A stretch of 64,000 nt of DNA from an uncultured Clostridia bacterium (GTDB lineage: Bacteria > Bacillota > Clostridia > TANB77 > CAG-508): contig CAKPNJ010000001.1 of assembly GCA_934168365.1 (NCBI GenBank), positions 20,967 to 84,966 of the forward strand, read 5' to 3'. Both the position numbers and the translations under genes were made by a program. Position 1 is the stretch's first letter. The number at the start of each line of letters is the position of its first letter. The notes beneath the pieces are model-generated. The model did not search any database. It saw only the letters and a list, made by a program, of their open reading frames with translations, and had not been told where the DNA came from. Below, in pieces: positions 11,781 through 25,121 of the stretch.

Positions 11781-13062
11781 TTTTAACCTCCAAAACCTTA
11801 GTTCCACCCATATATGGCCATAAAACTTCAGGAATTTTAACACTTCCATCTTCTTGATAATTATTTTCAAGTAAAGCAATTAACATACGAGGTGGGGCAA
11901 CAACTGTATTGTTCAAAGTATGAGCAAAATAATTTTGTTTTTCTCCCTTAATTCTAATACCTAAACGTCTAGCTTGAGCATCAGTTAAGTTAGAACAGCT
12001 ACCAACTTCAAAGTATTTTTGTTGTCTAGGGCTCCAAGCCTCAACGTCACAGCTCTTAGCCTTTAAGTCAGCTAAGTCACCACTGCAACATTCAAGAGTA
12101 CGAACTGGAATATCTAAGCTTCTAAATAATTCAACTGTATATGACCATAATTTATCATACCAATTCCAGCTATCTTCAGGCTCACACACAACAATCATTT
12201 CTTGCTTTTCAAATTGGTGAATACGGTAAACACCACGTTCTTCAATACCATGAGCACCTTTTTCTTTTCTAAAACAAGGAGAATATGATGTCATTGTATA
12301 AGGAATTCTATCTTTTGGAAGAATTTGATCTTTAAATTTGCCTATCATAGAATGTTCACTTGTACCAATTAAATACAAATCTTCTCCTTCAATTTTATAC
12401 ATCATAGCATCCATTTCCTCAAAGCTCATAACACCAGTTACAACACTGCTACGAATCATAAAAGGTGGAACACAATAAGTAAACCCTTTATTTATCATAA
12501 AATCTCTAGCATAAGAAATAACTGCAGAATGAAGTCTAGCAATATCACCCATTAAATAATAGAATCCATTACCAGCAACTCTACGAGCAGCATCCAAGTC
12601 AATGCCTTCAAATGCTTCCATAATATCTGTATGATATGGAATTTCATAACTTGGAACAACTGGCTCTCCAAACTTTTGAATTTCAACATTTTCACTATCA
12701 TCTTTACCAACTGGAACAGACTCATGAATAATGTTAGGAATTTTCATCATTTTCTCTTGAATTTTAGCAGAATATTCCTCTTCAAGTTTCTCATTTTCAA
12801 GTAATTTATTATTAATTTCTTGTACCTGAGCCTTTATACCTTCTGCCTCATCTTTTTTACCTTGTCTCATTAAATTACCAATTTCACTACTTAATGAATT
12901 TCTTTTGCTTCTTAACTCATCACCATTTAATTTTGCTTCACGATTTTTAGTATCTAATTCGAGAATTTCGTCAACCAATGGTAATTTGTAATCTTGAAAT
13001 TTCTTCTTAATATTTTCCTTAACTACATCCGGATTTTCTCTTAAAAATTTAATATCTATCAT
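11770..13062 (-). CDS. serS: Serine--tRNA ligase
   Basis: N-terminal coiled-coil arm MIDIKFLRENPD...; class II motifs; FEKQEM and TLNNTVVAPPR signatures; 430 aa. Confidence 0.95.
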   Translation of the reverse strand: MIDIKFLRENPDVVKENIKKKFQDYKLPLVDEILELDTKNREAKLNGDELRSKRNSLSSEIGNLMRQGKKDEAEGIKAQVQEINNKLLENEKLEEEYSAKIQEKMMKIPNIIHESVPVGKDDSENVEIQKFGEPVVPSYEIPYHTDIMEAFEGIDLDAARRVAGNGFYYLMGDIARLHSAVISYARDFMINKGFTYCVPPFMIRSSVVTGVMSFEEMDAMMYKIEGEDLYLIGTSEHSMIGKFKDQILPKDRIPYTMTSYSPCFRKEKGAHGIEERGVYRIHQFEKQEMIVVCEPEDSWNWYDKLWSYTVELFRSLDIPVRTLECCSGDLADLKAKSCDVEAWSPRQQKYFEVGSCSNLTDAQARRLGIRIKGEKQNYFAHTLNNTVVAPPRMLIALLENNYQEDGSVKIPEVLWPYMGGTKVLEVKNVH

Positions 13063-13094
13063 AACTTTACCTCTATAATATAAATTACCAATTT

Positions 13095-13123
13095 ATTATA
13101 GCAAACAATTTTGCAAAAATCAA
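13095..13123 (-). promoter_or_regulatory. Putative sigma-A promoter of serS
   Basis: The minus strand reads TTGATT, 17 nt, TATAAT. The leader is too short for a T-box. Confidence 0.45.
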
Positions 13124-13199
13124 TATTTCTTAAAGCATAACGCATAAATTGGAAATTAGTGTATATAATGTTTATGAGAAACCAAAAAGGAGACAAGTA

Positions 13200-13475
13200 A
13201 TGTTTGAAGAATATCAAAAAGAAACAAATATAAAAGACAAGACTGATGAAGATAAAAAGGTAGAACTTATAATGAGTTTAATAAAAGCAAAAAAAGAATT
13301 GAATTTAGCAACTAAAAATTTTGAAACAGCAGAAGAAGGTTTAGTGGACTATTATGTATATCAAATTAAAGCTAGTAAAAGTAAAGTGGATTTTTTAGTA
13401 AATAAAGCGAGGGATAGGGGATTATCATTAAATATGATAGAAGAAATTTATTTCAAAAAAAATCAAGTAGGATAA
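13200..13475 (+). CDS. YaaL-like protein (DUF2508)
   Basis: The ATG follows RBS aaaggaga. A helical 91-aa protein with the LVDYYVYQIKASKSK pattern, lying immediately upstream of bofA as in the Bacillus yaaL-bofA pair. Confidence 0.5.
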   Translation: MFEEYQKETNIKDKTDEDKKVELIMSLIKAKKELNLATKNFETAEEGLVDYYVYQIKASKSKVDFLVNKARDRGLSLNMIEEIYFKKNQVG

Positions 13476-13529
13476 GTAATATTTGTCCAATTTTTATCAT
13501 ACATATTACTAAAGGAATGGTGATAAAAA

Positions 13530-13790
13530 TTGGACTTTTCTAATGCTTTAGTTATTTTAGGATGTATAGTAGTTTTGTGGATTATTGGAAAAATATTTTC
13601 AGTTCCATTAAAAGCATTGTTTAAACTAATAGTAAACTCTGTTTTAGGTGGATTACTAATATTTATAATAAACTTAATAGGTTCAGCATGGGGATTTCAT
13701 ATAGGGCTAAATGTTGTTACAGCAGTATTAGTAGGCCTTTTAGGAATTCCTGGGGCGATACTGCTAATCATACTAAAACTATTCATCTAA
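13530..13790 (+). CDS. bofA: Pro-sigma-K processing inhibitor BofA
   Basis: 86-aa two-TM protein with the C-terminal ...GLNVVTAVLVGLLGIPGAILLIIL signature of BofA. TTG start. Confidence 0.7.
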   Translation: MDFSNALVILGCIVVLWIIGKIFSVPLKALFKLIVNSVLGGLLIFIINLIGSAWGFHIGLNVVTAVLVGLLGIPGAILLIILKLFI

Positions 13791-13794
13791 AAAA

Positions 13795-13835
13795 GGTGAC
13801 TATGGGGACGGGGTCAAAAAGCACCCATAGTCACC
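13795..13835. terminator. Bidirectional terminator hairpin carrying a copy of the GGGGACGGGGTCAAAAAGCACCC repeat core
   Basis: ggtgactatgg ... ccatagtcacc stem flanked by aaaaa / ttttt. The loop plus part of the stem (13802..13826) is identical over 25 nt to 56799..56823. Confidence 0.7.
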
Positions 13836-13843
13836 TTTTTAGT

Positions 13844-15676
13844 TTATTCAACTGTAACTGATTTAGCTAAGTTTCTTGGTTTATCAACATCTAATCCTTT
13901 ATTTTTTGCAATGTAGTAAGAAAGCAATTGAAGTGGAATAACAGAAAGGATAGGTGAGATAAGGCTATTAGTTTCAGGTATATTTATAACATAATTAAAT
14001 GAGCCACTTGCTAATTTTTGGTTTGTAACAACTAAAGTTTTAGCACCTCTTGTTATAACCTCTTGAATATTACTAATAGATTTTTCAACTAAATTAGGAT
14101 CTGTTAAAATACTAATTACAGTTATACCATTTTCAATTAAAGCAATAGGTCCATGTTTTAATTCGCCAGAAGCATATGCCTCAGAATGAATATATGAAAT
14201 TTCTTTTAATTTCAAAGAACCTTCCATTGCAACATTGTAATCAGTACCTCTACCTAAAAAGTACATATCATGCTCAGTATATACTTTGTTAGCAAACTCT
14301 TTAATAGCATCTGTTTCATCTAACATGGCTTCAACTTTAGCAGGTAAATCTAAAATATCAGCTTTTAATTTTTCAATTCCACCATATGATCCTAAAACTT
14401 CAGCAAAATACATAGCTAAAATTACCATTAACACAACTTGTGAAGTATACGCTTTTGTAGAAGCTACAGCAATTTCAGGACCGGCATGAGTATATATTGT
14501 ATAATCAGCCTCACGAGTAATTGAACTTCCAATTACATTCGAAACAGCTAATGTTTTAGCACCTTTAGCCTTAGCAAGTTTTAAAGCTGCAATTGTATCA
14601 GCAGTTTCGCCAGATTGACTAATATAGATACAAAGTGTTTTATCATCTATAATTGGGTCACGATAACGGAACTCAGATGCAATATCAACTACAGTAGGAA
14701 TTTTGCAAAGTTTTTCAATTGCATTTTTTCCGACTAAACCTGCATGCATAGCTGTACCACAAGCAACAATATATATCTTATTTATTTTCTCTAAATATTC
14801 TTTTGAAATGTCTATGTCATCAAAACTGCATTTTTCTCCAAGTTTAAATCTAGAACCAATGGTCTCACGAATTGCAGTTGGTTGTTCAAATATTTCTTTT
14901 AACATATAATCTTCATAACCATTTTTCTCTGCTGCAGTAGCATCCCATTCAATATTCTTAATAGCTTTGCTATGAGAAGTTAAGCTATTATCATAAAAAT
15001 CTATATGGTCTTTATAAACAACTGCATACTCTTGGTCATCTAACAAATAAAATTCCTTTGTATATTTTAAAACAGCAGGAATATCTGATGCAATAAAGTT
15101 TTCACTATTTCCTTTTCCTAAAACTAAAGGACTATCTTTTCTAACTACAATAACTCTATCAGGATGTAAGTTAGAAATAATTTCTAGTGCATAACTTCCT
15201 TTTAAATCATCGACTGCAGATTTTACGGCTCTTAAGAATTTGTCATCATCATTTATTCCATTTGTGTAATAGTAATGAATCAAATTAGGAATTATTTCTG
15301 TGTCTGTTTGTGATAAAAAGTAATATCCTTTAGAAGCTAAAAATTCTTTTAATTCATGGTAATTTTCAATAATACCATTGTGCACAACTGCAAATTCACC
15401 GCTATTATCCATATGAGGATGAGAATTTTCTTTTGCAGGTTTTCCATGAGTTGCCCATCTTGTATGTGCAATACCAATAGTAGATTTTAAATCATTTATA
15501 CCATCAATTGCTTCTAAATTTGCAACTCTTCCTTTATCTTTCATTACAGTAATTTTGCCGTCTTCGATAACAGCAATACCAGCAGAGTCATAACCTCTGT
15601 ATTCTAAACATAATAAACCATTTATTAAAACTGGAGTGGCTTTTTTGTCTCCTATATAACCTATAATGCCACACAT
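13844..15676 (-). CDS. glmS: Glutamine--fructose-6-phosphate aminotransferase
   Basis: MCGIIGY N-terminal nucleophile, two SIS domains and the C-terminal ...NLAKSVTVE; 610 aa. Confidence 0.95.
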   Translation of the reverse strand: MCGIIGYIGDKKATPVLINGLLCLEYRGYDSAGIAVIEDGKITVMKDKGRVANLEAIDGINDLKSTIGIAHTRWATHGKPAKENSHPHMDNSGEFAVVHNGIIENYHELKEFLASKGYYFLSQTDTEIIPNLIHYYYTNGINDDDKFLRAVKSAVDDLKGSYALEIISNLHPDRVIVVRKDSPLVLGKGNSENFIASDIPAVLKYTKEFYLLDDQEYAVVYKDHIDFYDNSLTSHSKAIKNIEWDATAAEKNGYEDYMLKEIFEQPTAIRETIGSRFKLGEKCSFDDIDISKEYLEKINKIYIVACGTAMHAGLVGKNAIEKLCKIPTVVDIASEFRYRDPIIDDKTLCIYISQSGETADTIAALKLAKAKGAKTLAVSNVIGSSITREADYTIYTHAGPEIAVASTKAYTSQVVLMVILAMYFAEVLGSYGGIEKLKADILDLPAKVEAMLDETDAIKEFANKVYTEHDMYFLGRGTDYNVAMEGSLKLKEISYIHSEAYASGELKHGPIALIENGITVISILTDPNLVEKSISNIQEVITRGAKTLVVTNQKLASGSFNYVINIPETNSLISPILSVIPLQLLSYYIAKNKGLDVDKPRNLAKSVTVE

Positions 15677-15694
15677 AAAAATATACCTCCTTAA

Positions 15695-15868
15695 AATTTA
15701 AAGTAAGGCATACAAATTAAAGCGTACTCATATTAAATTTGTTATATTATATTACTATAATTTTTTTGTTAATATGTAATGGCAGTAACGCATGCCATAG
15801 AGCCATCCGCCGAATCTTTCGATAAACTCTAACCTCGTCAACAGTGTATAAACACTGTCCTGGCGCTA
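15695..15868 (-). ncRNA. glmS ribozyme: glmS ribozyme (GlcN6P-dependent self-cleaving leader)
   Basis: The minus strand reads AGCGCCAGGACAGUGUUUAUACACUGUUGACGAGGUUAGAGUUUAUCGAAAGAUUCGGCGGAUGGCUCUAUGGCAUGCG.... This matches the conserved AGCGCCAG...GACGAGG...AUCGAA...UCGGCGGAUG core, directly upstream of glmS. The 3' boundary is approximate. Confidence 0.85.
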
Positions 15869-15923
15869 AATATATACAACCCTCCTAAAGGATATTTTTT
15901 TAATTTGTATTCCTAGTGCTAAT

Positions 15924-15952
15924 ATATTACTATAAAATGCAAAATGTGTCAA
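15924..15952 (-). promoter_or_regulatory. Putative glmS promoter
   Basis: The minus strand reads TTGACA, 17 nt, TAATAT, about 55 nt upstream of the ribozyme cleavage site. Confidence 0.5.
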
Positions 15953-15987
15953 ATTTTATTTTTTTATATCACAATAAGTAATATATA

Positions 15988-16016
15988 TTGAAAGCAAAAT
16001 AAAAATATGATATAAT
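15988..16016 (+). promoter_or_regulatory. Putative promoter of the LysR-radical SAM gene
   Basis: TTGAAA, 17 nt, TATAAT, about 40 nt upstream of the start codon. Confidence 0.5.
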
Positions 16017-16057
16017 GCAAAACAACAACATAAATAAAATTTATAAATAGGAGATAG

Positions 16058-17893
16058 ATGATGGAAGAATTAAATAATATAGATTTGAATCTATGTAAAT
16101 CATTTGTAGCTGTGGCAAAATCTGGTAGCATATCTAAAGCGGCAGATATGTTGTATGTATCACAACCGGCTGTCAGTCGTAATATAAAAATATTAGAGGA
16201 CAGATTGGAATGTAAATTGTTTAACCGTACAGCAAAAGGTGTTGAACTTACTGCTGATGCTCAGAAACTTATGTATTATATGGAAAATGCATACAATACA
16301 ATAAAAACTGGATTTAAAGTTCTAAATGATTCAAATGATTTATTAAAAGGAGAAGTTAGAATAGGAGTACCGACGCATATTTGCATCTTTTTAGTTTCAG
16401 ATATAATAGAAGCTTTTAATAAAAACTATCCAGGAATAAAATTTTCTATTGTTAATAGATCAACTACAGAAATGGTTGATATGTTAGAAAAAAGAGAGCT
16501 GGATGTAATAATAGATAGCTATCCAATAGAAAGTTCACGAGAAGACATTGTGGTGGATGATTTAATAGAGGTAGATAATTGTTTCGTAGCTAGTAATAAG
16601 TATGCAAAGTTAATAAGTAATAGTAAAGCAATAAGCATAAATGAACTATCACAATATCCTTTGCTGTTACAACAAGCTAAAACAAGTACAAGAAAAGCTC
16701 TGGATAATATATTAGGAGGTTCTCTAGAGATATTTGAACCTAACATTGAAGTTGCAACAACAGAAGTAATGTTGGATCTTGTAAAAAAGGGACTGGGAAT
16801 AGGGTATTTTACCAAGATGTCTGTTATGGATAAGTTACAATCAGGGGAACTTATAGAAATACCAATAAAAGAAGAATTACCAAAAACTAAAATTGGTATA
16901 GTATATATTAAAGAATTCCTAACAAGTGCACCTAAAAAATTTGTAGAAATAGTTAAAGAAAAAGCTAATATGTTAAATAGTCTTAAGCAAAAAACAATCC
17001 GCTTAATATTATTACAAGACTGTGTGTATAATTGTGAGTTTTGTCATAAAGAAGGAATAAGAACTAAGAAGGAATCTCTTATGACACCAGATGATATTGA
17101 ATACATGTATAGTGTACTAAACAATAGATATGGAATAAAAACAGTTCAATTAACAGGGGGAGAGCCACTATTAAAGGAAAACTTAAAAGAAATAATTACC
17201 AACTTAAAGAAACATGGAGCCAATATAAAAGTAACTACCAATGGATATCTTTTAGAAGATAATATGTGGATAGGGGAAATGGTAGACAAGCTTAATATTT
17301 CTTTACATAGTTTTGATAAAAATAAATATCAGAGTATTTCTACTGTTGAAAATTCATATGAAAAAGTGGTTTCTGCAGTTAAAAAAATGAGGTTTAAATA
17401 TCCAACATTAAAAATAAGCATAAATACAACATTATTAAGGGGAATAAATGATAATTATAATTCTATACAAGAATTGGTAGGCTTTGCTTCTTCAATAAAA
17501 GCAGATTTGAAAATTGTAGAGGTATATCCAAAAAATTCAAAATATTATACAAGTATATATAAAATAGAGCCTTTAATCAAGCAGATGGGGTATAAGAATA
17601 TAAAAGATAGTTTTAGAAAAAAATTATTTTCTAACGGAATTCACAACATTTTTTTACAAAGATGTACTTGCAGTATTATATCTGAACAAAGTGATAAAAC
17701 TGAACTTTGCAAGGAACATAATGATTTATATATTAGTCAAGATGGAAAAGTTAATTTATGTAGAGCTGCAAATGATACTATAGATTTATATTATTCTATA
17801 AAAGAGAGAGATGATAATGAACTTGCAAGTAAAATAAAAAAAGCCTACGAAGAAATGGGAGGTAGATGTATATGTCAGGTGGAACAGAAATAG
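16058..17893 (+). CDS. Fusion protein: LysR-family regulator (HTH plus substrate-binding domain) joined to a MoaA-like radical SAM domain
   Basis: Residues 1-300 carry the LysR HTH (SISKAADMLYVSQPAVSRNIKILE) and a periplasmic-binding-like effector domain. Residues about 315-611 carry CVYNCEFC (CX3CX2C), LTGGEPLL, a second Cys cluster CTCSIISEQSDKTELC, and LYISQDGKVNLC, which resembles the MoaA RLTADGKL..C tail. It is a single uninterrupted ORF. Confidence 0.8.
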   Translation: MMEELNNIDLNLCKSFVAVAKSGSISKAADMLYVSQPAVSRNIKILEDRLECKLFNRTAKGVELTADAQKLMYYMENAYNTIKTGFKVLNDSNDLLKGEVRIGVPTHICIFLVSDIIEAFNKNYPGIKFSIVNRSTTEMVDMLEKRELDVIIDSYPIESSREDIVVDDLIEVDNCFVASNKYAKLISNSKAISINELSQYPLLLQQAKTSTRKALDNILGGSLEIFEPNIEVATTEVMLDLVKKGLGIGYFTKMSVMDKLQSGELIEIPIKEELPKTKIGIVYIKEFLTSAPKKFVEIVKEKANMLNSLKQKTIRLILLQDCVYNCEFCHKEGIRTKKESLMTPDDIEYMYSVLNNRYGIKTVQLTGGEPLLKENLKEIITNLKKHGANIKVTTNGYLLEDNMWIGEMVDKLNISLHSFDKNKYQSISTVENSYEKVVSAVKKMRFKYPTLKISINTTLLRGINDNYNSIQELVGFASSIKADLKIVEVYPKNSKYYTSIYKIEPLIKQMGYKNIKDSFRKKLFSNGIHNIFLQRCTCSIISEQSDKTELCKEHNDLYISQDGKVNLCRAANDTIDLYYSIKERDDNELASKIKKAYEEMGGRCICQVEQK

Positions 17894-18444
17894 AAAGAGA
17901 AGTTAGATATAAGATAGATGAAGAAATTAAAAATAAAATTATAAATTCGTCTTGTTCAATAGAAAAAGCAACTCAATGTGTAGATTTATGTATGGGTCAA
18001 TATGGATTTGATTCATTAGAAAAATTAGGATACATTATTCGCCTTAGAAATAAATCAAATAAATGCATAATTGAGTCTAAAAGAAGATTAGATGATAATT
18101 CTTGGAGTGAGTCCAAAATTGTAATTCCTACAATGAAAGATGGGTATGATTTTTTAAAGAACATTGAATTACAGCCATATTTGTATATAAATAGAATTAG
18201 AGAAGTAAGAGAGATTGATATTGCAAAGGTATATATAGATGAGCTAGAGATACTGGGAGACTTTGTTGAGTTTGAATTAAAAGAGGGATATGAATTCAAA
18301 GATTTAGATGAATATTTAAAAAGAATTGGGATAAATAACAAGCCGGAAAAATTATATGGAGATATATTTAAAGAAAAAGCAAAAGATCCAAAATTTAATG
18401 AAATATTAAATAATACAATTAATAATTTTTTAGATGTAAAATAA
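17866..18444 (+). CDS. CYTH-domain protein (CyaB / class IV adenylyl cyclase / triphosphatase-like)
   Basis: N-terminal EIEREVRYKI (the ExExK signature), then IIRLRNKS...IIESKRR and VYIDELEILGDFVEFEL (compare V.LD.V..LG.F.EIE). It overlaps the upstream stop by 28 nt. The start may be the ATG at 17872. Confidence 0.75.
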   Translation: MYMSGGTEIEREVRYKIDEEIKNKIINSSCSIEKATQCVDLCMGQYGFDSLEKLGYIIRLRNKSNKCIIESKRRLDDNSWSESKIVIPTMKDGYDFLKNIELQPYLYINRIREVREIDIAKVYIDELEILGDFVEFELKEGYEFKDLDEYLKRIGINNKPEKLYGDIFKEKAKDPKFNEILNNTINNFLDVK

Positions 18445-18453
18445 TTAAGATTT

Positions 18454-18482
18454 GAAAATGCCAAATGGCATTTTCTTTTTTG
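18454..18482 (+). terminator. Rho-independent terminator after the CYTH gene
   Basis: gaaaatgcca-aa-tggcattttc followed by ttttttt. Confidence 0.75.
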
Positions 18483-18521
18483 ATATAAATTTCACTTATA
18501 TAATATATAAAATATTTGTAT

Positions 18522-18550
18522 TTGTATTTAAGGAATATTGCTAATATAAT
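18522..18550 (+). promoter_or_regulatory. Putative promoter of the oxidoreductase-Nudix pair
   Basis: TTGTAT, 17 nt, TATAAT. Confidence 0.45.
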
Positions 18551-18585
18551 ACTGCTATAGAGTTTTTACAAGGGAGGATACTCGT

Positions 18586-20001
18586 ATGAATGAATTTAAC
18601 GACTATAGTATTATACTTGTTGGACTAGGACCTCATGCTAAAAGAATTTATATGAATTTATTTAAAAAATACAGAATGAGTCCAAAAGTTATAGTAGACT
18701 TGAAAAGCAAAAGAAGAGAAATAGAGAGTTACTTGGAAGAAAACGATTTTAGGTCGGTAGATTTATACTTGTTGGATGACTACAAAAGAGATAACCTAGA
18801 ACTTACAAGTGAAGACAAGAAAGAAATACAAAAGTTGATTCTACAAAAGAACATAAAATATGCTATAATATCAACAGAGCCGAAATCGCATTTTGCATAT
18901 GCTAAATTTTTTCTTGAAAATGACATAAACATATTAATGGATAAACCAATTACAGCTCCAATTAATGTTAACTGTGATACAAAACAAGCATTAAAAATTA
19001 AAGAAGAATATGATATTTTATGTCAAATGTATAAAAAGAAAAAAGATAAAATAAGCTTCAAAATACAATGTCAAAGAAGATTTCATGAAGGGTATTTATA
19101 TGTGAAACGTTTATTAGAACAAGTGGTAAGAGAGTATAATATACCAATTACATATATAGATATATATCATAATGACGGAATGTGGAATATGCCTTCAGAA
19201 TTTCTAGAGAGAGAAAATCATCCATACAAATATGGATACGGAAAACTTTTTCACAGTGGATATCACTTTATAGATTTAATGGCTTGGCTTATGGAAGTAA
19301 ACCGTGAAACTAAGGGAAAGCAAATAAATAATGCGGAAATGTTTGTTTCTACATATAATCCGGTAGATTTTTTTAATACTTTTAACAATTATGATTATAA
19401 GAGAATATTAAAAACTAATAGATTTGAAAAATATATAGAAAACAAAGAAAAATTTATAGACTTTGGTGAAATAGATTTTCATTCAATAATTAATTTTAAA
19501 CAAGATGAAAAATTAATTACTAACTGTTCTATAAATTTAATGCAATCAGGATTTAGTAGAAGAGCTTGGTGTGAATTACCTAAAGATACATATAAGGGAA
19601 ATGGTAGAGTGAGACACGAAAGGCTTAATGTACAAGTTGGACCACTTATGAATATACAAGTTCATAGTTATCAGGCTTATGAAGTAAAAGATAGAGACCA
19701 AATACTTAATAATGGTGTGGGAAGTGTAGAACATTTTGATATATATGTATTTAGAAATAGTCAACTTATTGGAGGCAAAATATTTGAAACATTAGACATT
19801 GCAACATTATCTGAAAAAGATAAAAAATATTTTAACGGATATAACGAAAAAGCAAGAGAAAATTGTTTTATAAATTTTCTACTTAATATAGATGACAGTT
19901 CGGATTTGTTAGAACACAAAACAAGTATAGAAATAACAGAAAAAGCATATGAAATTATGAGTAGAAAAAATAGTATAGTTAATTTTGATATTAAAATATG
20001 A
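18586..20001 (+). CDS. Gfo/Idh/MocA-like NAD(P)-binding oxidoreductase, unusually long (471 aa)
   Basis: N-terminal Rossmann IILVGLGPHAKRIY, and ISTEPKSHFAYAKFFLENDINILMDKPI (compare the I.TP...H...A..AL.AGKHVL.EKP motif). The C-terminal half is not recognised. Confidence 0.55.
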   Translation: MNEFNDYSIILVGLGPHAKRIYMNLFKKYRMSPKVIVDLKSKRREIESYLEENDFRSVDLYLLDDYKRDNLELTSEDKKEIQKLILQKNIKYAIISTEPKSHFAYAKFFLENDINILMDKPITAPINVNCDTKQALKIKEEYDILCQMYKKKKDKISFKIQCQRRFHEGYLYVKRLLEQVVREYNIPITYIDIYHNDGMWNMPSEFLERENHPYKYGYGKLFHSGYHFIDLMAWLMEVNRETKGKQINNAEMFVSTYNPVDFFNTFNNYDYKRILKTNRFEKYIENKEKFIDFGEIDFHSIINFKQDEKLITNCSINLMQSGFSRRAWCELPKDTYKGNGRVRHERLNVQVGPLMNIQVHSYQAYEVKDRDQILNNGVGSVEHFDIYVFRNSQLIGGKIFETLDIATLSEKDKKYFNGYNEKARENCFINFLLNIDDSSDLLEHKTSIEITEKAYEIMSRKNSIVNFDIKI

Positions 20002-20011
20002 GGGAGGTAAT

Positions 20012-20542
20012 ATGAATATTATAACAGAAATAACAGATGATACGTTTGGAATTGAATCAATTCCTTTTGATAATCCAAAAATAAGGTATGGTGCAAGAGG
20101 AATTGTAAAAAAGCAAGATGGAACTATAGCTGTATTTTTTAAGAAAGCAAAAAATGAATATAAATTGCCTGGTGGTGGAGTAGAGCAAGGTGAGACTTCA
20201 GAGAAAGCATTTGAAAGAGAAGTTTTAGAAGAAGTTGGATGTGAAGTCAATAATATATTATTATTAGGAATAACAAGAGAACTAAAATCTCAAGAAAATT
20301 TTCAACAGATATCCTATGTATTTAGATGTGATGTGAAAAATGACACAAAAAATACCAAAATGACACAAAAAGAGATAGATGAGGGAGGATTAGTTATTTG
20401 GCTTACACCTGAGGAGGCTTTGAATAAAATTATAGAATGTGAAAGTCAACTTAAAGCTTCTGATTATGACAGTATATATAGAACAAAGTTTATGAATTAT
20501 AGAGATAGAGAAATACTTAAATACTATATTGAAAATAGATAG
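20012..20542 (+). CDS. Nudix hydrolase
   Basis: Complete Nudix box GGGVEQGETSEKAFEREVLEEVG (GX5EX7REUXEEXGU). RBS gagggagg. The region upstream of the start overlaps the end of the preceding gene. Confidence 0.85.
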   Translation: MNIITEITDDTFGIESIPFDNPKIRYGARGIVKKQDGTIAVFFKKAKNEYKLPGGGVEQGETSEKAFEREVLEEVGCEVNNILLLGITRELKSQENFQQISYVFRCDVKNDTKNTKMTQKEIDEGGLVIWLTPEEALNKIIECESQLKASDYDSIYRTKFMNYRDREILKYYIENR

Positions 20543-20655: not shown

Positions 20656-22449
20656 GTGTTTAATATAGAAGAGGAACTAAAAAAGTTGCCTAGCAAACCA
20701 GGCGTATATATTATGCATGACAAAAATGATAAGATTATATATGTTGGTAAAGCAATTTCTTTAAAAAATAGAGTAAGGCAATATTTTAGAAAAAACAATA
20801 AAACAAAAAGAATTGAAAATATGGTGTCTTTAATAGACCACTTTGAATATATTGTTACAGATAATGAATCAGAGGCACTTATTTTAGAGTGTAACTTAAT
20901 AAAAAAGAATATGCCAAAATTCAATGTTTTATTAAAAGATGACAAAACATACCCATATATTAAAATAAACACAAAATTAGAATTCCCAAACATATACTTA
21001 ACTAGAAGAATACTAAATGATGGTGCAAGATATTTTGGACCATATGCAAATAGTGGCAGTGCAAAAGCAATGCTAGATTTTATAAATTCAAAATATAAAA
21101 TTAGACAATGTAAAACATTTAAATATAAAGGTAGAGCATGTTTAAATTATCATATTAAAAAATGCTCTGGACCTTGTATTGGTAAAATTTCAAAAGAAGA
21201 TTATAGAAAAGAAATAAATCAAATTATTAGCCTATTAGAAGGTAATACAAACCAAATAATGAAAGAGCTTGATAAAGATATTAAAGAAGCGGCAGATAAG
21301 TTGGAGTTTGAGAAAGCGGCAGAGTTAAGAGATAAAAAATATGCTATTCAAAGAATTACAGAAGAAAGACAAAAGGTTTCTAATATATCAGAGCATAATA
21401 TTGATGTAATAGGTATAGCTAAAGGACAAACTCAAGTATGTGTCGAAATATTTTTAATTCGTAATAGTAAAATGATAGAAAGACATCATTACTTTTTTGA
21501 AGGATTACAAGATGAATCAGATGCAGAAATTTTATCAAGTTTTATTAAACAATATTATATAAATGATGTATTTTTACCAAATAAAATTATGATAAAAGAA
21601 GCGATTGAAGATAAAGAAATATTAGAGCAATTGCTTTCAGAAAATTCAAGCCATAAGGTAGAAATAAAAGTACCTCAAAAGGGCGAAAAACTAAGACTAG
21701 TTGAAATGGCAGAAAACAATGCTAAAATTACTATAATGAATAAAGAAAAGGAAAAATATAGCGTTGTGAATGAATTAAAAGAAGTGCTAAAATTAGATAA
21801 ATTGCCTAGAAAAATTGAAGGTTATGATATATCAAATTTATCAGGGCAATTTATGGTTGCTTCAATGTGTGTATTAAAAGATGGAGAGCTAAAAAAGAAC
21901 TTATCAAGAAAATTTAAAATAAAAACAGTAATTAGTCAAGATGACCCTAAATGTATGCAAGAGGTAGTAAAAAGAAGGTTACTTCATTCAATAGATAACC
22001 CAAATGGAGCATTTGGTGACTTCCCAGATATAATATTTGCAGATGGTGGAATTACGCAAATAAGGGCAACTAAACAAGCTATTAAAGAGCTAGGCTTATC
22101 TATACCTGTATATGGAATGGTAAAAGACGATAAACATAGTACTAGGGCACTTATAGACGAGAACAAAAATGAATTTGAACTATCTGAAAATTTAATGAAA
22201 GTAATTACAAATTTTCAAGATAACATACATGATACTGCAATAAATTATCATAGACAATTAAGAGATAAACAAACAACACATTCAGTTTTAGACGAAATAG
22301 ACGGAATAGGAGAAGCAAAGAAAAAAGCTTTATTAAAGAAATTTAAAACTATAAACAACATACAAAATGCTAGTATAGAAGAATTGACAGAGGTATCAGG
22401 AATTACAGAAAAGCTAGCTAAAAGTATAAAGCAGAAATTAAGCGAATAA
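20656..22449 (+). CDS. uvrC: Excinuclease ABC subunit C
   Basis: GIY-YIG (PGVYIMHDKNDKIIYVGKA), a UVR domain (FEKAAELRDK), an endonuclease V-like domain and a C-terminal HhH2. GTG start after aagggggaaa. Confidence 0.95.
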   Translation: MFNIEEELKKLPSKPGVYIMHDKNDKIIYVGKAISLKNRVRQYFRKNNKTKRIENMVSLIDHFEYIVTDNESEALILECNLIKKNMPKFNVLLKDDKTYPYIKINTKLEFPNIYLTRRILNDGARYFGPYANSGSAKAMLDFINSKYKIRQCKTFKYKGRACLNYHIKKCSGPCIGKISKEDYRKEINQIISLLEGNTNQIMKELDKDIKEAADKLEFEKAAELRDKKYAIQRITEERQKVSNISEHNIDVIGIAKGQTQVCVEIFLIRNSKMIERHHYFFEGLQDESDAEILSSFIKQYYINDVFLPNKIMIKEAIEDKEILEQLLSENSSHKVEIKVPQKGEKLRLVEMAENNAKITIMNKEKEKYSVVNELKEVLKLDKLPRKIEGYDISNLSGQFMVASMCVLKDGELKKNLSRKFKIKTVISQDDPKCMQEVVKRRLLHSIDNPNGAFGDFPDIIFADGGITQIRATKQAIKELGLSIPVYGMVKDDKHSTRALIDENKNEFELSENLMKVITNFQDNIHDTAINYHRQLRDKQTTHSVLDEIDGIGEAKKKALLKKFKTINNIQNASIEELTEVSGITEKLAKSIKQKLSE

Positions 22450-24500: not shown

Positions 24501-25121
24501 ATGATTGATAAATTTTGTGATTTGATAACTGAAAAAATAAAATCAAAGGTTACAGACATAGATGAAGAAAGAGAATTAGTTATTAACTTTGGTGTGAGAC
24601 TGATTTTTGGAGAATTACCTAAAATTTTAATATTATTCATTATAGGATTTTTATTAAGTATGGGATGGCAAACTTTATTATTATTTTTCTTAATAGCACC
24701 TTATAGAAGTTTTACAGGTGGTATTCATCTAAAAACACATTTAGGTTGTATGATTACAACAAGTATTTTATATTTATTACCAATTATATTATCAAAATAT
24801 ATTTTAATATCAAATAAAAATATTCTTTATATATTAGCAGGATTGATAACAATATTTAGTATTATTATAATTGCTAAATATGCACCTGCAGATACTGAAA
24901 ATATGCCGATTTTGAGTAAGAAAGAAATAAAATCAAAAAAAATTAGGTCATATATAGCATTAGTAATTTTATTATCAATAATAATATTTAATCCATACAA
25001 ACAATTCTCATACATGATAATTTATGCAATGTTTTTGCAAAACCTAACAGTATTACCTATTTCATATAAAATAACAAATAACAAACATGGCTACGAAGTA
25101 TATACAGAGGAAACAATTTAA
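24501..25121 (+). CDS. agrB: AgrB-family autoinducer-processing membrane peptidase
   Basis: A multi-TM protein with YRSFTGGIHLKTHLGC, the conserved catalytic His/Cys context of AgrB. It is followed by a small AgrD-like ORF. Confidence 0.85.
   Translation: MIDKFCDLITEKIKSKVTDIDEERELVINFGVRLIFGELPKILILFIIGFLLSMGWQTLLLFFLIAPYRSFTGGIHLKTHLGCMITTSILYLLPIILSKYILISNKNILYILAGLITIFSIIIIAKYAPADTENMPILSKKEIKSKKIRSYIALVILLSIIIFNPYKQFSYMIIYAMFLQNLTVLPISYKITNNKHGYEVYTEETI

Follow-up and report, generated by a model that had tools for sequence, protein, structure and literature searches.

A LysR-radical SAM fusion protein and its CYTH, oxidoreductase and Nudix neighbours in uncultured Clostridia: a candidate nucleotide-modifying locus

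Introduction

Each radical S-adenosylmethionine (SAM) enzyme found to act on free nucleotides, MoaA, viperin, QueE and OxsB among them, has led to a new field in biology or pharmacology. MoaA belongs to molybdenum cofactor (Moco) biosynthesis and carries an auxiliary-cluster motif, CX2CX13C, with an open iron site; viperins are single Fe-S cluster proteins not known to have a second cysteine-rich domain, and the pVip proteins make 3′-deoxy-3′,4′-didehydro-nucleoside triphosphates (ddhNTPs), often from genes beside nucleotide kinases. In the oxetanocin A pathway, OxsB, a radical SAM enzyme, remodels the sugar of a purine nucleotide and OxsA, an HD phosphohydrolase, trims its phosphates, and BtrN illustrates how a radical SAM "twitch" dehydrogenase can stand in for an NAD-dependent one in anaerobes. 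In the Pur pathway, the NAD-dependent ATP dehydrogenase Pur10, the aminotransferase Pur4 and the Nudix hydrolase Pur7 convert a nucleoside triphosphate (NTP) into a 3′-amino-3′-deoxy nucleotide, and AdgB-E, homologues of Pur10, Pur4, Pur7 and Pur3, convert GTP into 3′-amino-3′-deoxyguanosine (PMC11641026, PMC9239236). The locus described here lies in 64,000 nucleotides of contig CAKPNJ010000001.1 from an uncultured Clostridia bacterium, the stretch analysed as a whole and referred to as the window, and consists of four adjacent genes encoding a LysR-radical SAM fusion protein, a CYTH protein, an oxidoreductase of the Gfo/Idh/MocA fold and a Nudix hydrolase.

The fusion and CYTH genes are treated here as module A and the oxidoreductase and Nudix genes as module B. 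The preferred reading, given a probability of about 0.5, is that the two modules cooperate on a nucleotide in a ligand-regulated modification of its sugar moiety, and do not serve Moco synthesis. An earlier note, made from the letters of the window, had described these four genes and proposed that all of them are directed at nucleotides; the four open reading frames (ORFs) were all recovered on the + strand with domain calls backed by Pfam and NCBIfam, and the common direction is judged plausible. The note had also not recognised the combination as a known pathway, and no description of the gene combination, the LysR-radical SAM fusion, the radical SAM-CYTH link or the Gfo-Nudix link was found in the searchable literature, which misses most subscription journals.

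The LysR-Radical SAM Fusion Protein

The first gene (16058 to 17893, + strand) encodes 611 amino acids (aa) that combine, in a single chain, Pfam matches to HTH_1 (72.9 bits), LysR_substrate (112.3 bits) and Radical_SAM (74 bits), confirming the union of a LysR regulator with a MoaA-like radical SAM domain that had been read from the sequence. The helix-turn-helix (HTH) occupies residues 10 to 69, the effector domain residues 95 to 302 and the radical SAM domain residues 312 to 611, with a linker helix at about 290 to 310. An AlphaFold2 (AF2) model with a mean predicted local distance difference test (pLDDT) score of 78 shows a complete LysR-type regulator, a long helix and a radical SAM barrel. 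When the whole model was searched with Foldseek, the N-terminal half matched full-length CcmR, OxyR, BenM, CbnR and CysB (E 1e-17 to 1e-19); this list is dominated by LysR matches and says nothing on the radical SAM half. Sequence and model together thus predict the winged HTH, linker helix and two-lobed effector domain of a LysR-type regulator.

The same architecture recurs in 377 homologues of 598 to 614 aa, 51 to 100% identical, all of which carry HTH_1, LysR_substrate and Radical_SAM. These come from hundreds of independent assemblies, which rules out a frameshift or misassembly as the source of the fusion. A single 51%-identical variant accounts for 3107 indexed blocks of the assembly collection, and the full fusion is found in 9 of 185,579 species-representative genomes, all from uncultured Clostridia or Clostridiales. 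A contig of an uncultured Clostridia metagenome-assembled genome (MAG) from the Hadza gut (locus L008) matches the window at 99% identity. Eight cysteines are invariant in the nine fusion proteins: C322, C326 and C329 at the start of the radical SAM domain, and C536, C538, C551, C568 and C604 towards its end.

The Radical SAM Domain and MoaA

A canonical MoaA, that is a GTP 3′,8-cyclase, fused to a regulator of Moco genes and flanked by unrelated neighbours would be a rival account of this protein. Over its full extent the domain scores best in NCBIfam against MoaA models, led by archaeal MoaA for residues 312 to 597 (152.6 bits); MoaA is the closest solved structure by sequence, and the CX1CX12C arrangement formed by C536, C538 and C551 in the fusion clade is near the CX2CX13C of MoaA. 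However, the scores lie under every curated cut-off, at 152.6 of 325.25 bits for TIGR02668, 140.8 of 231 bits for NF001199 and 127.1 of 284.05 bits for TIGR02666, which amounts to about 60% of one cut-off at best and less than half for the other two. The Mob_synth_C domain (PF06463) reaches 16.8 bits on the window protein against a cut-off of 37.4, the solved MoaA structure aligns over the barrel core only, and the second cysteine of the fusion-clade motif, C538, is not kept in the wider family, whereas a fourth, C604, is.

An exhaustive search with the radical SAM domain alone returned 75 representative clusters at E < 1e-30, and a profile was built from 28 of them. This profile separates the family members, which score 221 to 379 bits and lack PF06463 in precomputed Pfam annotation, from true MoaAs, which score at most 188 bits and carry it, and ten unfused family members all lie under the MoaA cut-offs. 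The CX3CX2C cluster motif (C322, C326, C329) is invariant in the nine fusion proteins and in the 28 family members alike, and C536, C551, C568 and C604 are conserved family-wide, suggesting a second cluster in this family. In S. aureus MoaA, R17, K69 and R71 contact GTP, with K69 and R71 at the triphosphate; the equivalent of R17 is invariant here, whereas the positions aligned with K69 and R71 are T and Q and are not conserved.

Gene context points the same way. The earlier note had found no moaC, moaB or moeA beside the MoaA-like domain, and tblastn with E. coli queries likewise found no moaC, moaB, moeA or moaE in the 64 kb window (best E 0.8), MoeA and MoaE giving strong matches in a positive control on a Polaromonas locus and MoaC and MoaB being without such a control. 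In each lineage examined the partners are instead Nudix, CYTH, HD, aminotransferase or kinase genes. A canonical MoaA is therefore most improbable, and a role in Moco biosynthesis was ruled out on hidden Markov model (HMM) cut-offs, domain content and gene context. The earlier note had made its hypothesis depend on the domain not being the only MoaA of a genome with a complete Moco pathway; that the domain is no Moco-pathway MoaA is supported here. By sequence, the domain is assigned to an undescribed sister family of MoaA, about 300 aa long and apart from MoaA itself, and on this evidence the label "cyclic pyranopterin phosphate synthase" borne by some family members is an over-annotation.

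Fusions and Neighbours of the Radical SAM Family

The partners of the wider family offer a guide to its chemistry. Those members whose length is unusual are domain fusions, namely cytidylate kinase-radical SAM, radical SAM-DegT/DnrJ/EryC1 aminotransferase, radical SAM-Nudix, radical SAM-HD and LysR-radical SAM. For unfused members, neighbourhoods were taken from Alphaproteobacteria, candidate phyla and gut metagenomes, and nearly all loci whose flanks are available have Nudix, HD or CYTH either fused to the radical SAM gene or encoded directly after it (L088-L090, L092-L097, L099, L101, L104 and L106, with two genes between in L093); on fragment L103 a Nudix gene lies upstream of the radical SAM gene. 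An aminotransferase is present at L093, L099, L100 and L106. This family-wide linkage is strong guilt-by-association evidence for a substrate with a nucleoside di- or triphosphate and a product with an aminatable carbonyl, and from these fusions and gene neighbourhoods, more than a dozen of them independent, a guess at the substrate class can be made. GTP, which had been put forward as the substrate, is not upheld: its nomination derives from the resemblance to MoaA, of which the K69- and R71-aligned positions are not conserved, and the cytidylate kinase fusions point to CTP at least as much.

A further arrangement recurs in which a radical SAM protein and a DegT aminotransferase, fused or paired, are followed by a Nudix gene (L006 11946-15002, L099 130-3251, L106 4929-7613 and L093 7634-9784). 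A conserved protein of about 145 aa that matches no family stands beside the radical SAM-aminotransferase and Nudix genes in L006/L014, L016 and L099, and L093 encodes a Nudix-aminotransferase-Nudix triple fusion of 716 aa.

The CYTH Protein

The second gene of module A (17866 to 18444, + strand, 192 aa) has a borderline Pfam match to CYTH (23.6 bits against a cut-off of 23.2), while its orthologue in L020 reaches 48 bits. Every one of the nine species genomes with the fusion has an orthologue in its cluster (9/9; 33 to 79% identical), and the orthologue's gene usually overlaps or abuts the fusion gene. Against the CyaB model TIGR00318 the window protein scores 16.8 bits (cut-off 57.95). A profile of the family matches the SaTTM triphosphatase (7NS8) at full length, over residues 5 to 177 (E 1.9e-9); the Yersinia cyclase follows at E 1e-3.

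Three signatures mark the class IV adenylyl cyclases of this superfamily (Vogt et al. 2021, PMC8233210): an HF motif lies four residues before ExExK, a small residue takes the place of the first Arg of xRxR, and strand beta-8 carries ExA instead of ExE. All three are missing from the window protein and ten orthologues. Its N-terminus, MYMSGGTEIEREVRYK, has no HF motif and several orthologues begin right at MIEREVRYK; R57 and R59 (IIRLR) and E133 and E135 (VEFE) do not vary among 11 orthologues. RxR and ExE are thus retained, and the hallmark ExExK appears as ExExR. On these motifs the protein is predicted to be of the triphosphatase type, not the cyclase type. The earlier suggestion that a CYTH cyclase might stand in for MoaC is not supported by this result: a cyclase or MoaC analogue was rejected on motif criteria, the protein lacking all three cyclase signatures and having those of a triphosphatase.

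The pairing of regulator and CYTH extends beyond the fusion. In more distant Bacillota and Bacilli, LysR proteins 38 to 46% identical to the LysR half of the fusion adjoin a CYTH gene, with an HD protein as neighbour in a Bacilli MAG and with Ham1, a WYL regulator and a viperin-like radical SAM protein in three Bacillota MAGs (L017-L019). These distant pairs suggest that the link between regulator and CYTH is the deepest conserved one, and that two types of nucleotide-directed radical SAM protein have been recruited to it. The Bacillota cluster (L017 6849-11645, also in L018 and L019) encodes a WYL-HTH regulator, a 333-aa protein of no assigned function, Ham1, a 280-aa CYTH-like protein, a 257-aa viperin-like radical SAM protein (NF038283, 130 bits, cut-off 180) and the LysR protein, here 38 to 40% identical to the fusion half, and may represent an undescribed viperin-type system.

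This cluster bears on a further explanation for the window locus, a viperin-type antiviral or antimetabolite system in which the radical SAM domain would make a chain-terminating or toxic nucleotide analogue, kinases would feed it substrate, CYTH, Nudix, Ham1 and HD enzymes would curb self-intoxication or yield an exportable nucleoside, and the LysR half would be switched by a metabolite of infection or stress. Such a system would fit the shared LysR, CYTH-like, Ham1 and WYL-HTH content of L017-L019, and PADLOC pVip models do match the window radical SAM domain at E 1.9e-20, though at only 67 to 71 bits. Kinase-associated viperins have partners similar to the cytidylate kinase fusions of the family and to the guanylate kinase and AAA_28 kinase found in L004. 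The accessory genes differ strongly by lineage, serine recombinases adjoin the L001 cluster, and the 3′-amino-3′-deoxyguanosine made by Pur10/4/7 homologues is a GTP-mimic antibiotic. The family members are nevertheless far closer to MoaA (117 to 168 bits) than to the viperin model NF038283 (42 to 72 bits, against its cut-off of 180) and have an extra cysteine-rich domain. PADLOC matched no defined defence system, yielding only weak pVip and PDC-S07 domain matches, and IMG/VR viral contigs held no family member, partial matches being at most 37% identical to the radical SAM core. The clusters lie amid housekeeping genes (glmS, uvrC, the mraZ/penicillin-binding protein (PBP) cluster and murT); in the window, which has about 28% G+C and a clostridial look, the cluster has the composition of its flanks. 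On balance a viperin-type system is considered unlikely. A phage origin of the family was ruled out on the IMG/VR result.

The Oxidoreductase and the Nudix Hydrolase

The 471-aa product of the first gene of module B (18586 to 20001, + strand) matches the Pfam GFO_IDH_MocA N-terminal domain at 32.2 bits (cut-off 24) and belongs to a tightly conserved family with 1638 matches, many of which are 650-aa oxidoreductase-Nudix fusions. Its conserved motifs are GLGPHA, STEPK, DKP, QCQRR and HSGYHFxD, with GLGPHA, of the Rossmann GxGxxG/A type, and DKP, a variant of EKP, invariant in 18 homologues. The AF2 model (pLDDT 86.7) gave Foldseek matches with probability 1.0 and template modelling (TM) scores, normalised to the target, of 0.61 to 0.74; these neighbours include glucose-fructose oxidoreductase (GFOR), glucuronide 3-dehydrogenase (8TDI), the NAD-dependent glycoside hydrolase 8QC5, DgpA and GenD2, so that the nearest folds belong to oxidisers of sugar hydroxyls. 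Sequence and predicted structure therefore indicate a Gfo/Idh/MocA fold, probably of the sugar-3-dehydrogenase type. The 416-, 439- and 353-aa proteins of L004 and L006 were considered as homologues and rejected, there being no BLAST similarity.

The fourth protein, probably encoded at 20012 to 20542 (+ strand), matches PF00293 at 54.2 bits (cut-off 21.1) and lies under every NCBIfam subfamily cut-off. Its Nudix box is complete, as previously noted (GGGVEQGETSEKAFEREVLEEVGC, on the pattern GX5EX7REUXEEXGU). Its orthologue in the 650-aa fusions is their Nudix half (47 to 50% identity in L173 and L174), and identity to the adjacent Nudix proteins in L172 and L175 is 50 to 60%, by which sequence criterion it is the putative Rosetta-stone partner of the oxidoreductase.

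Module B also occurs in other company. In L172, at 71% identity, and in L258, at 77%, no radical SAM or CYTH gene lies nearby; in L173 it stands beside an unrelated CyaB-like CYTH, in L174 beside an acetyltransferase, and in L175 beside an LDH-NT5C fusion and a HAD phosphatase.

Linkage of the Two Modules

The window clade (L008-L011) has fusion-CYTH-oxidoreductase-Nudix (A-B), in two flanking contexts. In L256, whose fusion is of an approximately 64%-identical lineage, the order is oxidoreductase-Nudix-fusion-CYTH (B-A), and the context, a third one, has a PBP gene on one side and murT/gatD on the other. That the modules stay adjacent after both a move to new surroundings and a reversal of order speaks for selection to keep them linked. 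Chance proximity, which the earlier note had named as the outcome that would undo its case, is thus not what is seen: CYTH accompanies the fusion in all nine species genomes and the four genes occur together in at least three contexts and two orders. The idea of a single four-enzyme pathway, however, proves too simple. Module B is autonomous and far more widespread than module A, often as one fused protein, and frequently lacks radical SAM or CYTH neighbours even at 71 to 77% identity.

It is accordingly possible, if doubtful, that the modules are functionally independent neighbours, each with its own substrate. Each is also found alone. Module B stands by itself in L172, L174, L175 and L258 and has another CYTH beside it in L173, module A occurs without module B in L012, L014 and L015, and a terminator-like element lies between them in the window. 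An adjacency kept over at least three contexts and an order swap is hard to explain in this way without selection for linkage, and other branches of the radical SAM family pair with a Nudix protein of their own.

The partners of module A vary by lineage. They are the oxidoreductase and Nudix in the window clade; a guanylate kinase, a variant radical SAM protein, a Nudix protein, a second CYTH and an AAA_28 kinase in L004/L012; a paralogous radical SAM-aminotransferase, a Nudix protein and a 143-aa protein in L006/L014/L016; and an orotate-phosphoribosyltransferase (PRTase)-like protein with a kinase-like N-terminus, Ham1 and an NMT1-type ABC importer in L001/L015. In L004 (13179-14429) a 416-aa protein without a Pfam match corresponds to the NCBIfam variant_rSAM (NF045502, 146 bits, cut-off 125), so this cluster holds two different radical SAM proteins. 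The L001 cluster (11933-16315) is the commonest variant of the fusion cluster; its 418-aa kinase-like/orotate-PRTase-like protein, Ham1 and NMT1/THI5-type ABC importer suggest the import and phosphoribosylation of an unusual base, and two serine recombinases follow it.

In six contexts module A or B adjoins DNA repair genes, an adjacency that could be ordinary core-genome synteny or could hint at a part in dealing with nucleotide damage. These are uvrC in the window (20656-22449), uvrB in L004 (6927-8885), addA in L006 (15780-19313), uvrA in L175 (3077-5908), uvrA-uvrB in L258 (17-5188) and recA-recX in L174 (861-2529).

Sanitation or salvage of the nucleotide pool is a further reading, with the Nudix, CYTH, Ham1 and HD hydrolases clearing a damaged or non-canonical nucleotide, the radical SAM enzyme and oxidoreductase repairing or degrading its sugar or base, and the LysR half sensing the aberrant nucleotide. 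House-cleaning is the classic role of the Nudix, Ham1 and HD families, the importer and orotate-PRTase-like/kinase-like fusion of L001/L015 and the NT5C nucleotidase and HAD phosphatase of L175 would suit salvage, and the six repair-gene contexts are suggestive. The last may, however, be plain core-gene synteny, the radical SAM-aminotransferase fusions suggest biosynthesis through a new amino group, not clean-up, and we know of no radical SAM enzyme that repairs free nucleotides. Sanitation is judged rather improbable.

Proposed Function

The preferred reading, a ligand-regulated modification of the sugar moiety of a nucleotide, builds on what the sequences show: what the domains are, that the radical SAM domain is not MoaA, that CYTH has triphosphatase-type motifs, that the family is linked to phosphohydrolases, aminotransferases and kinases, and that the two modules are inherited together. 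In the scheme proposed here, the radical SAM domain would remove a hydrogen from the sugar of an NTP, or possibly of a nucleotide-sugar, to give an oxidised or dehydrated (keto or ene) nucleotide. The CYTH triphosphatase, from a gene probably coupled in translation to the fusion gene, would hydrolyse the triphosphate tail without cyclising it, CYTH and Nudix between them stripping the gamma-phosphate or pyrophosphate. By analogy with Pur10 and Pur7, the Gfo-like enzyme may carry out an oxidation or reduction at a hydroxyl or keto position of the sugar and the Nudix enzyme may cleave a pyrophosphate; in other lineages the DegT aminotransferase would aminate the radical SAM product, and in the window its carbonyl or hydroxyl would be dealt with by the Gfo-like enzyme. 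The LysR half may bind near its own conserved promoter, autoregulate in response to a pathway metabolite and perhaps couple this to catalysis.

Several points weigh against this scheme. Its chemistry is drawn by analogy, and the likeness of the oxidoreductase to Pur10 is one of role. Module B is often alone even in close relatives (L172, 71%; L258, 77%), module A has differing partners in L012, L014 and L015, and a terminator separates the two in the window; they may serve separate pathways. The window holds no aminotransferase or monophosphatase, which leaves the puromycin analogy incomplete. DegT partners usually act on nucleoside diphosphate (NDP)-sugars, and the substrate may thus be a nucleotide-sugar and not an NTP. 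The radical SAM domain could also be chiefly an Fe-S/SAM sensor for the regulator, not a catalyst.

A broader proposal is offered tentatively and stands at clearly lower odds than the scheme above: the family may comprise new anaerobic nucleotide-sugar oxidising or dehydrating enzymes, a radical counterpart of Pur10, whose DegT, Gfo-like, Nudix, CYTH or HD partners would aminate, reduce or dephosphorylate keto-nucleotides into new analogues (antimetabolites, antivirals or signals) in abundant gut Clostridia, with the LysR fusion as a ligand-sensing "regulator-enzyme", of a sort not described before, that would itself perform the committed radical step. One subfamily abounds in human and animal gut metagenomes, and identification of the product could reveal a new gut-made nucleotide analogue. 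The LysR-enzyme fusion would moreover be a tractable case of transcriptional control coupled directly to radical catalysis, and the "cyclic pyranopterin phosphate synthase" annotation of family members is corrected.

Locus Layout and Expression Signals

The four + strand ORFs lie between glmS, on the minus strand, and uvrC. The 28-nt overlap reported between the radical SAM and CYTH ORFs is present, and becomes 22 nt if CYTH begins at the ATG at 17872, the likely start, which is better spaced from GGGAGG at 17857-17862 and also overlaps the fusion gene. The overlap reported between the oxidoreductase and Nudix genes does not survive in this way, as it hangs on a TTG at 19985 (ORF 19985-20542, + strand, 185 aa). 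The ATG at 20012 is preceded by GGAGG and is a far likelier start, the orthologues are 176 to 178 aa long with alignments beginning at residue 10 to 13 of the window ORF, and a start there leaves the two genes 10 nt apart without overlap.

The terminator placed between the modules at 18454-18482 (+ strand) was found again as an intrinsic-terminator-like element, in which a hairpin (18454-18475) with a perfect 10-bp stem, GAAAATGCCA/TGGCATTTTC, is followed by a T-run; four terminator-like sites occur in 5.2 kb against 1.1 +/- 1.1 in shuffles. The new promoter claimed to follow it does not rise above chance. The oxidoreductase gene is preceded only by a -10 box without mismatch (TATAAT, 18545-18550) and a weak -35, in a scan that found 36 promoter-like sites against 39.7 expected in such AT-rich DNA. 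For the fusion gene, a Sigma-A type promoter is predicted at 15988-16016 (+ strand), with TTGAAA, a 17-nt spacer, TATAAT and a TG extended -10 box; at 11 of 12 matches it is the top site of the region, and its -35, spacer (ATAAAAATA) and -10 are kept in L010-L013, where the fusion protein is 64 to 82% identical. Between its -10 box and the ribosome-binding site lies a palindrome of the T-N11-A type, ATAAAT-AAA-ATTTAT (16030-16044), kept in L010 and L011 and more loosely in L012 and L013, which could be a candidate LysR operator, such palindromes being frequent in AT-rich DNA.

The glmS gene (13844-15676, - strand) carries in its leader a full-length glmS ribozyme/riboswitch (RF00234, 97 bits; 15719-15878, - strand), which takes up the greater part of the stretch between the divergent glmS and fusion genes, where the fusion-gene promoter also lies; apart from this neighbouring element, no riboswitch or known RNA was found in the operon leaders. 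Further downstream, at 24501-25121 (+ strand), a 206-aa multi-pass membrane ORF with the motif FTGGIHLKTH is, by eye only, AgrB-like, that is, like a protein of quorum-sensing peptide processing.

Comparison with Known Systems

Of the described systems, MoaA and MoaC share with this locus the CX3CX2C, GGEP and TNG motifs, a cysteine-bearing C-terminal extension and the principle of a second enzyme acting on the triphosphate of the product. Here, in contrast, that partner is a triphosphatase-type CYTH or a Nudix protein in place of MoaC and the enzyme is fused to LysR; unlike MoaA, the domain lies under all curated cut-offs, lacks Mob_synth_C, has four C-terminal cysteines conserved across its family and has no moa genes nearby. 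With viperin and pVip the locus has in common a small radical SAM enzyme directed, on the present proposal, at the sugar of an NTP, links of the family to cytidylate, guanylate and thymidylate-like kinases, and a related LysR-CYTH-Ham1 cluster in which a viperin-like radical SAM protein takes its place. It differs in the extra cysteine-rich domain, in the consistent pairing with Nudix, CYTH, HD or aminotransferase partners, and in a housekeeping context as opposed to defence islands. The likeness to OxsB and OxsA lies in the radical SAM-HD fusions and adjacent HD gene found within the family; OxsB, however, is a cobalamin-dependent radical SAM enzyme of another subfamily, and no B12 domain is present here.

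The Pur pathway of puromycin, A201A and cystocin, together with AdgB-E, resembles module B in its pairing of a dehydrogenase-like enzyme with a Nudix hydrolase. A DegT-type aminotransferase and a Nudix protein accompany the radical SAM family elsewhere, and a HAD/NT5C phosphatase accompanies module B in L175. The window, unlike the Pur pathway, offers a dehydrogenase-like and a Nudix gene but neither aminotransferase nor monophosphatase, several lineages have a radical SAM protein in the place of the dehydrogenase, and the Pur and Adg hosts, actinomycetes or Photorhabdus, differ from the anaerobic gut Clostridia here. As in SaTTM and the CYTH triphosphatases, to which it is matched at full length, the CYTH protein keeps the RxR and ExE of two-metal triphosphatases (PMC8233210), but it has ExExR in place of ExExK and its gene overlaps the reading frame of a radical SAM-regulator fusion. 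Taken together, the locus joins a putative radical SAM nucleotide-modifying enzyme to phosphohydrolase partners, and is unusual in drawing that enzyme from an uncharacterised sister family of MoaA and in joining it covalently to a LysR regulator.

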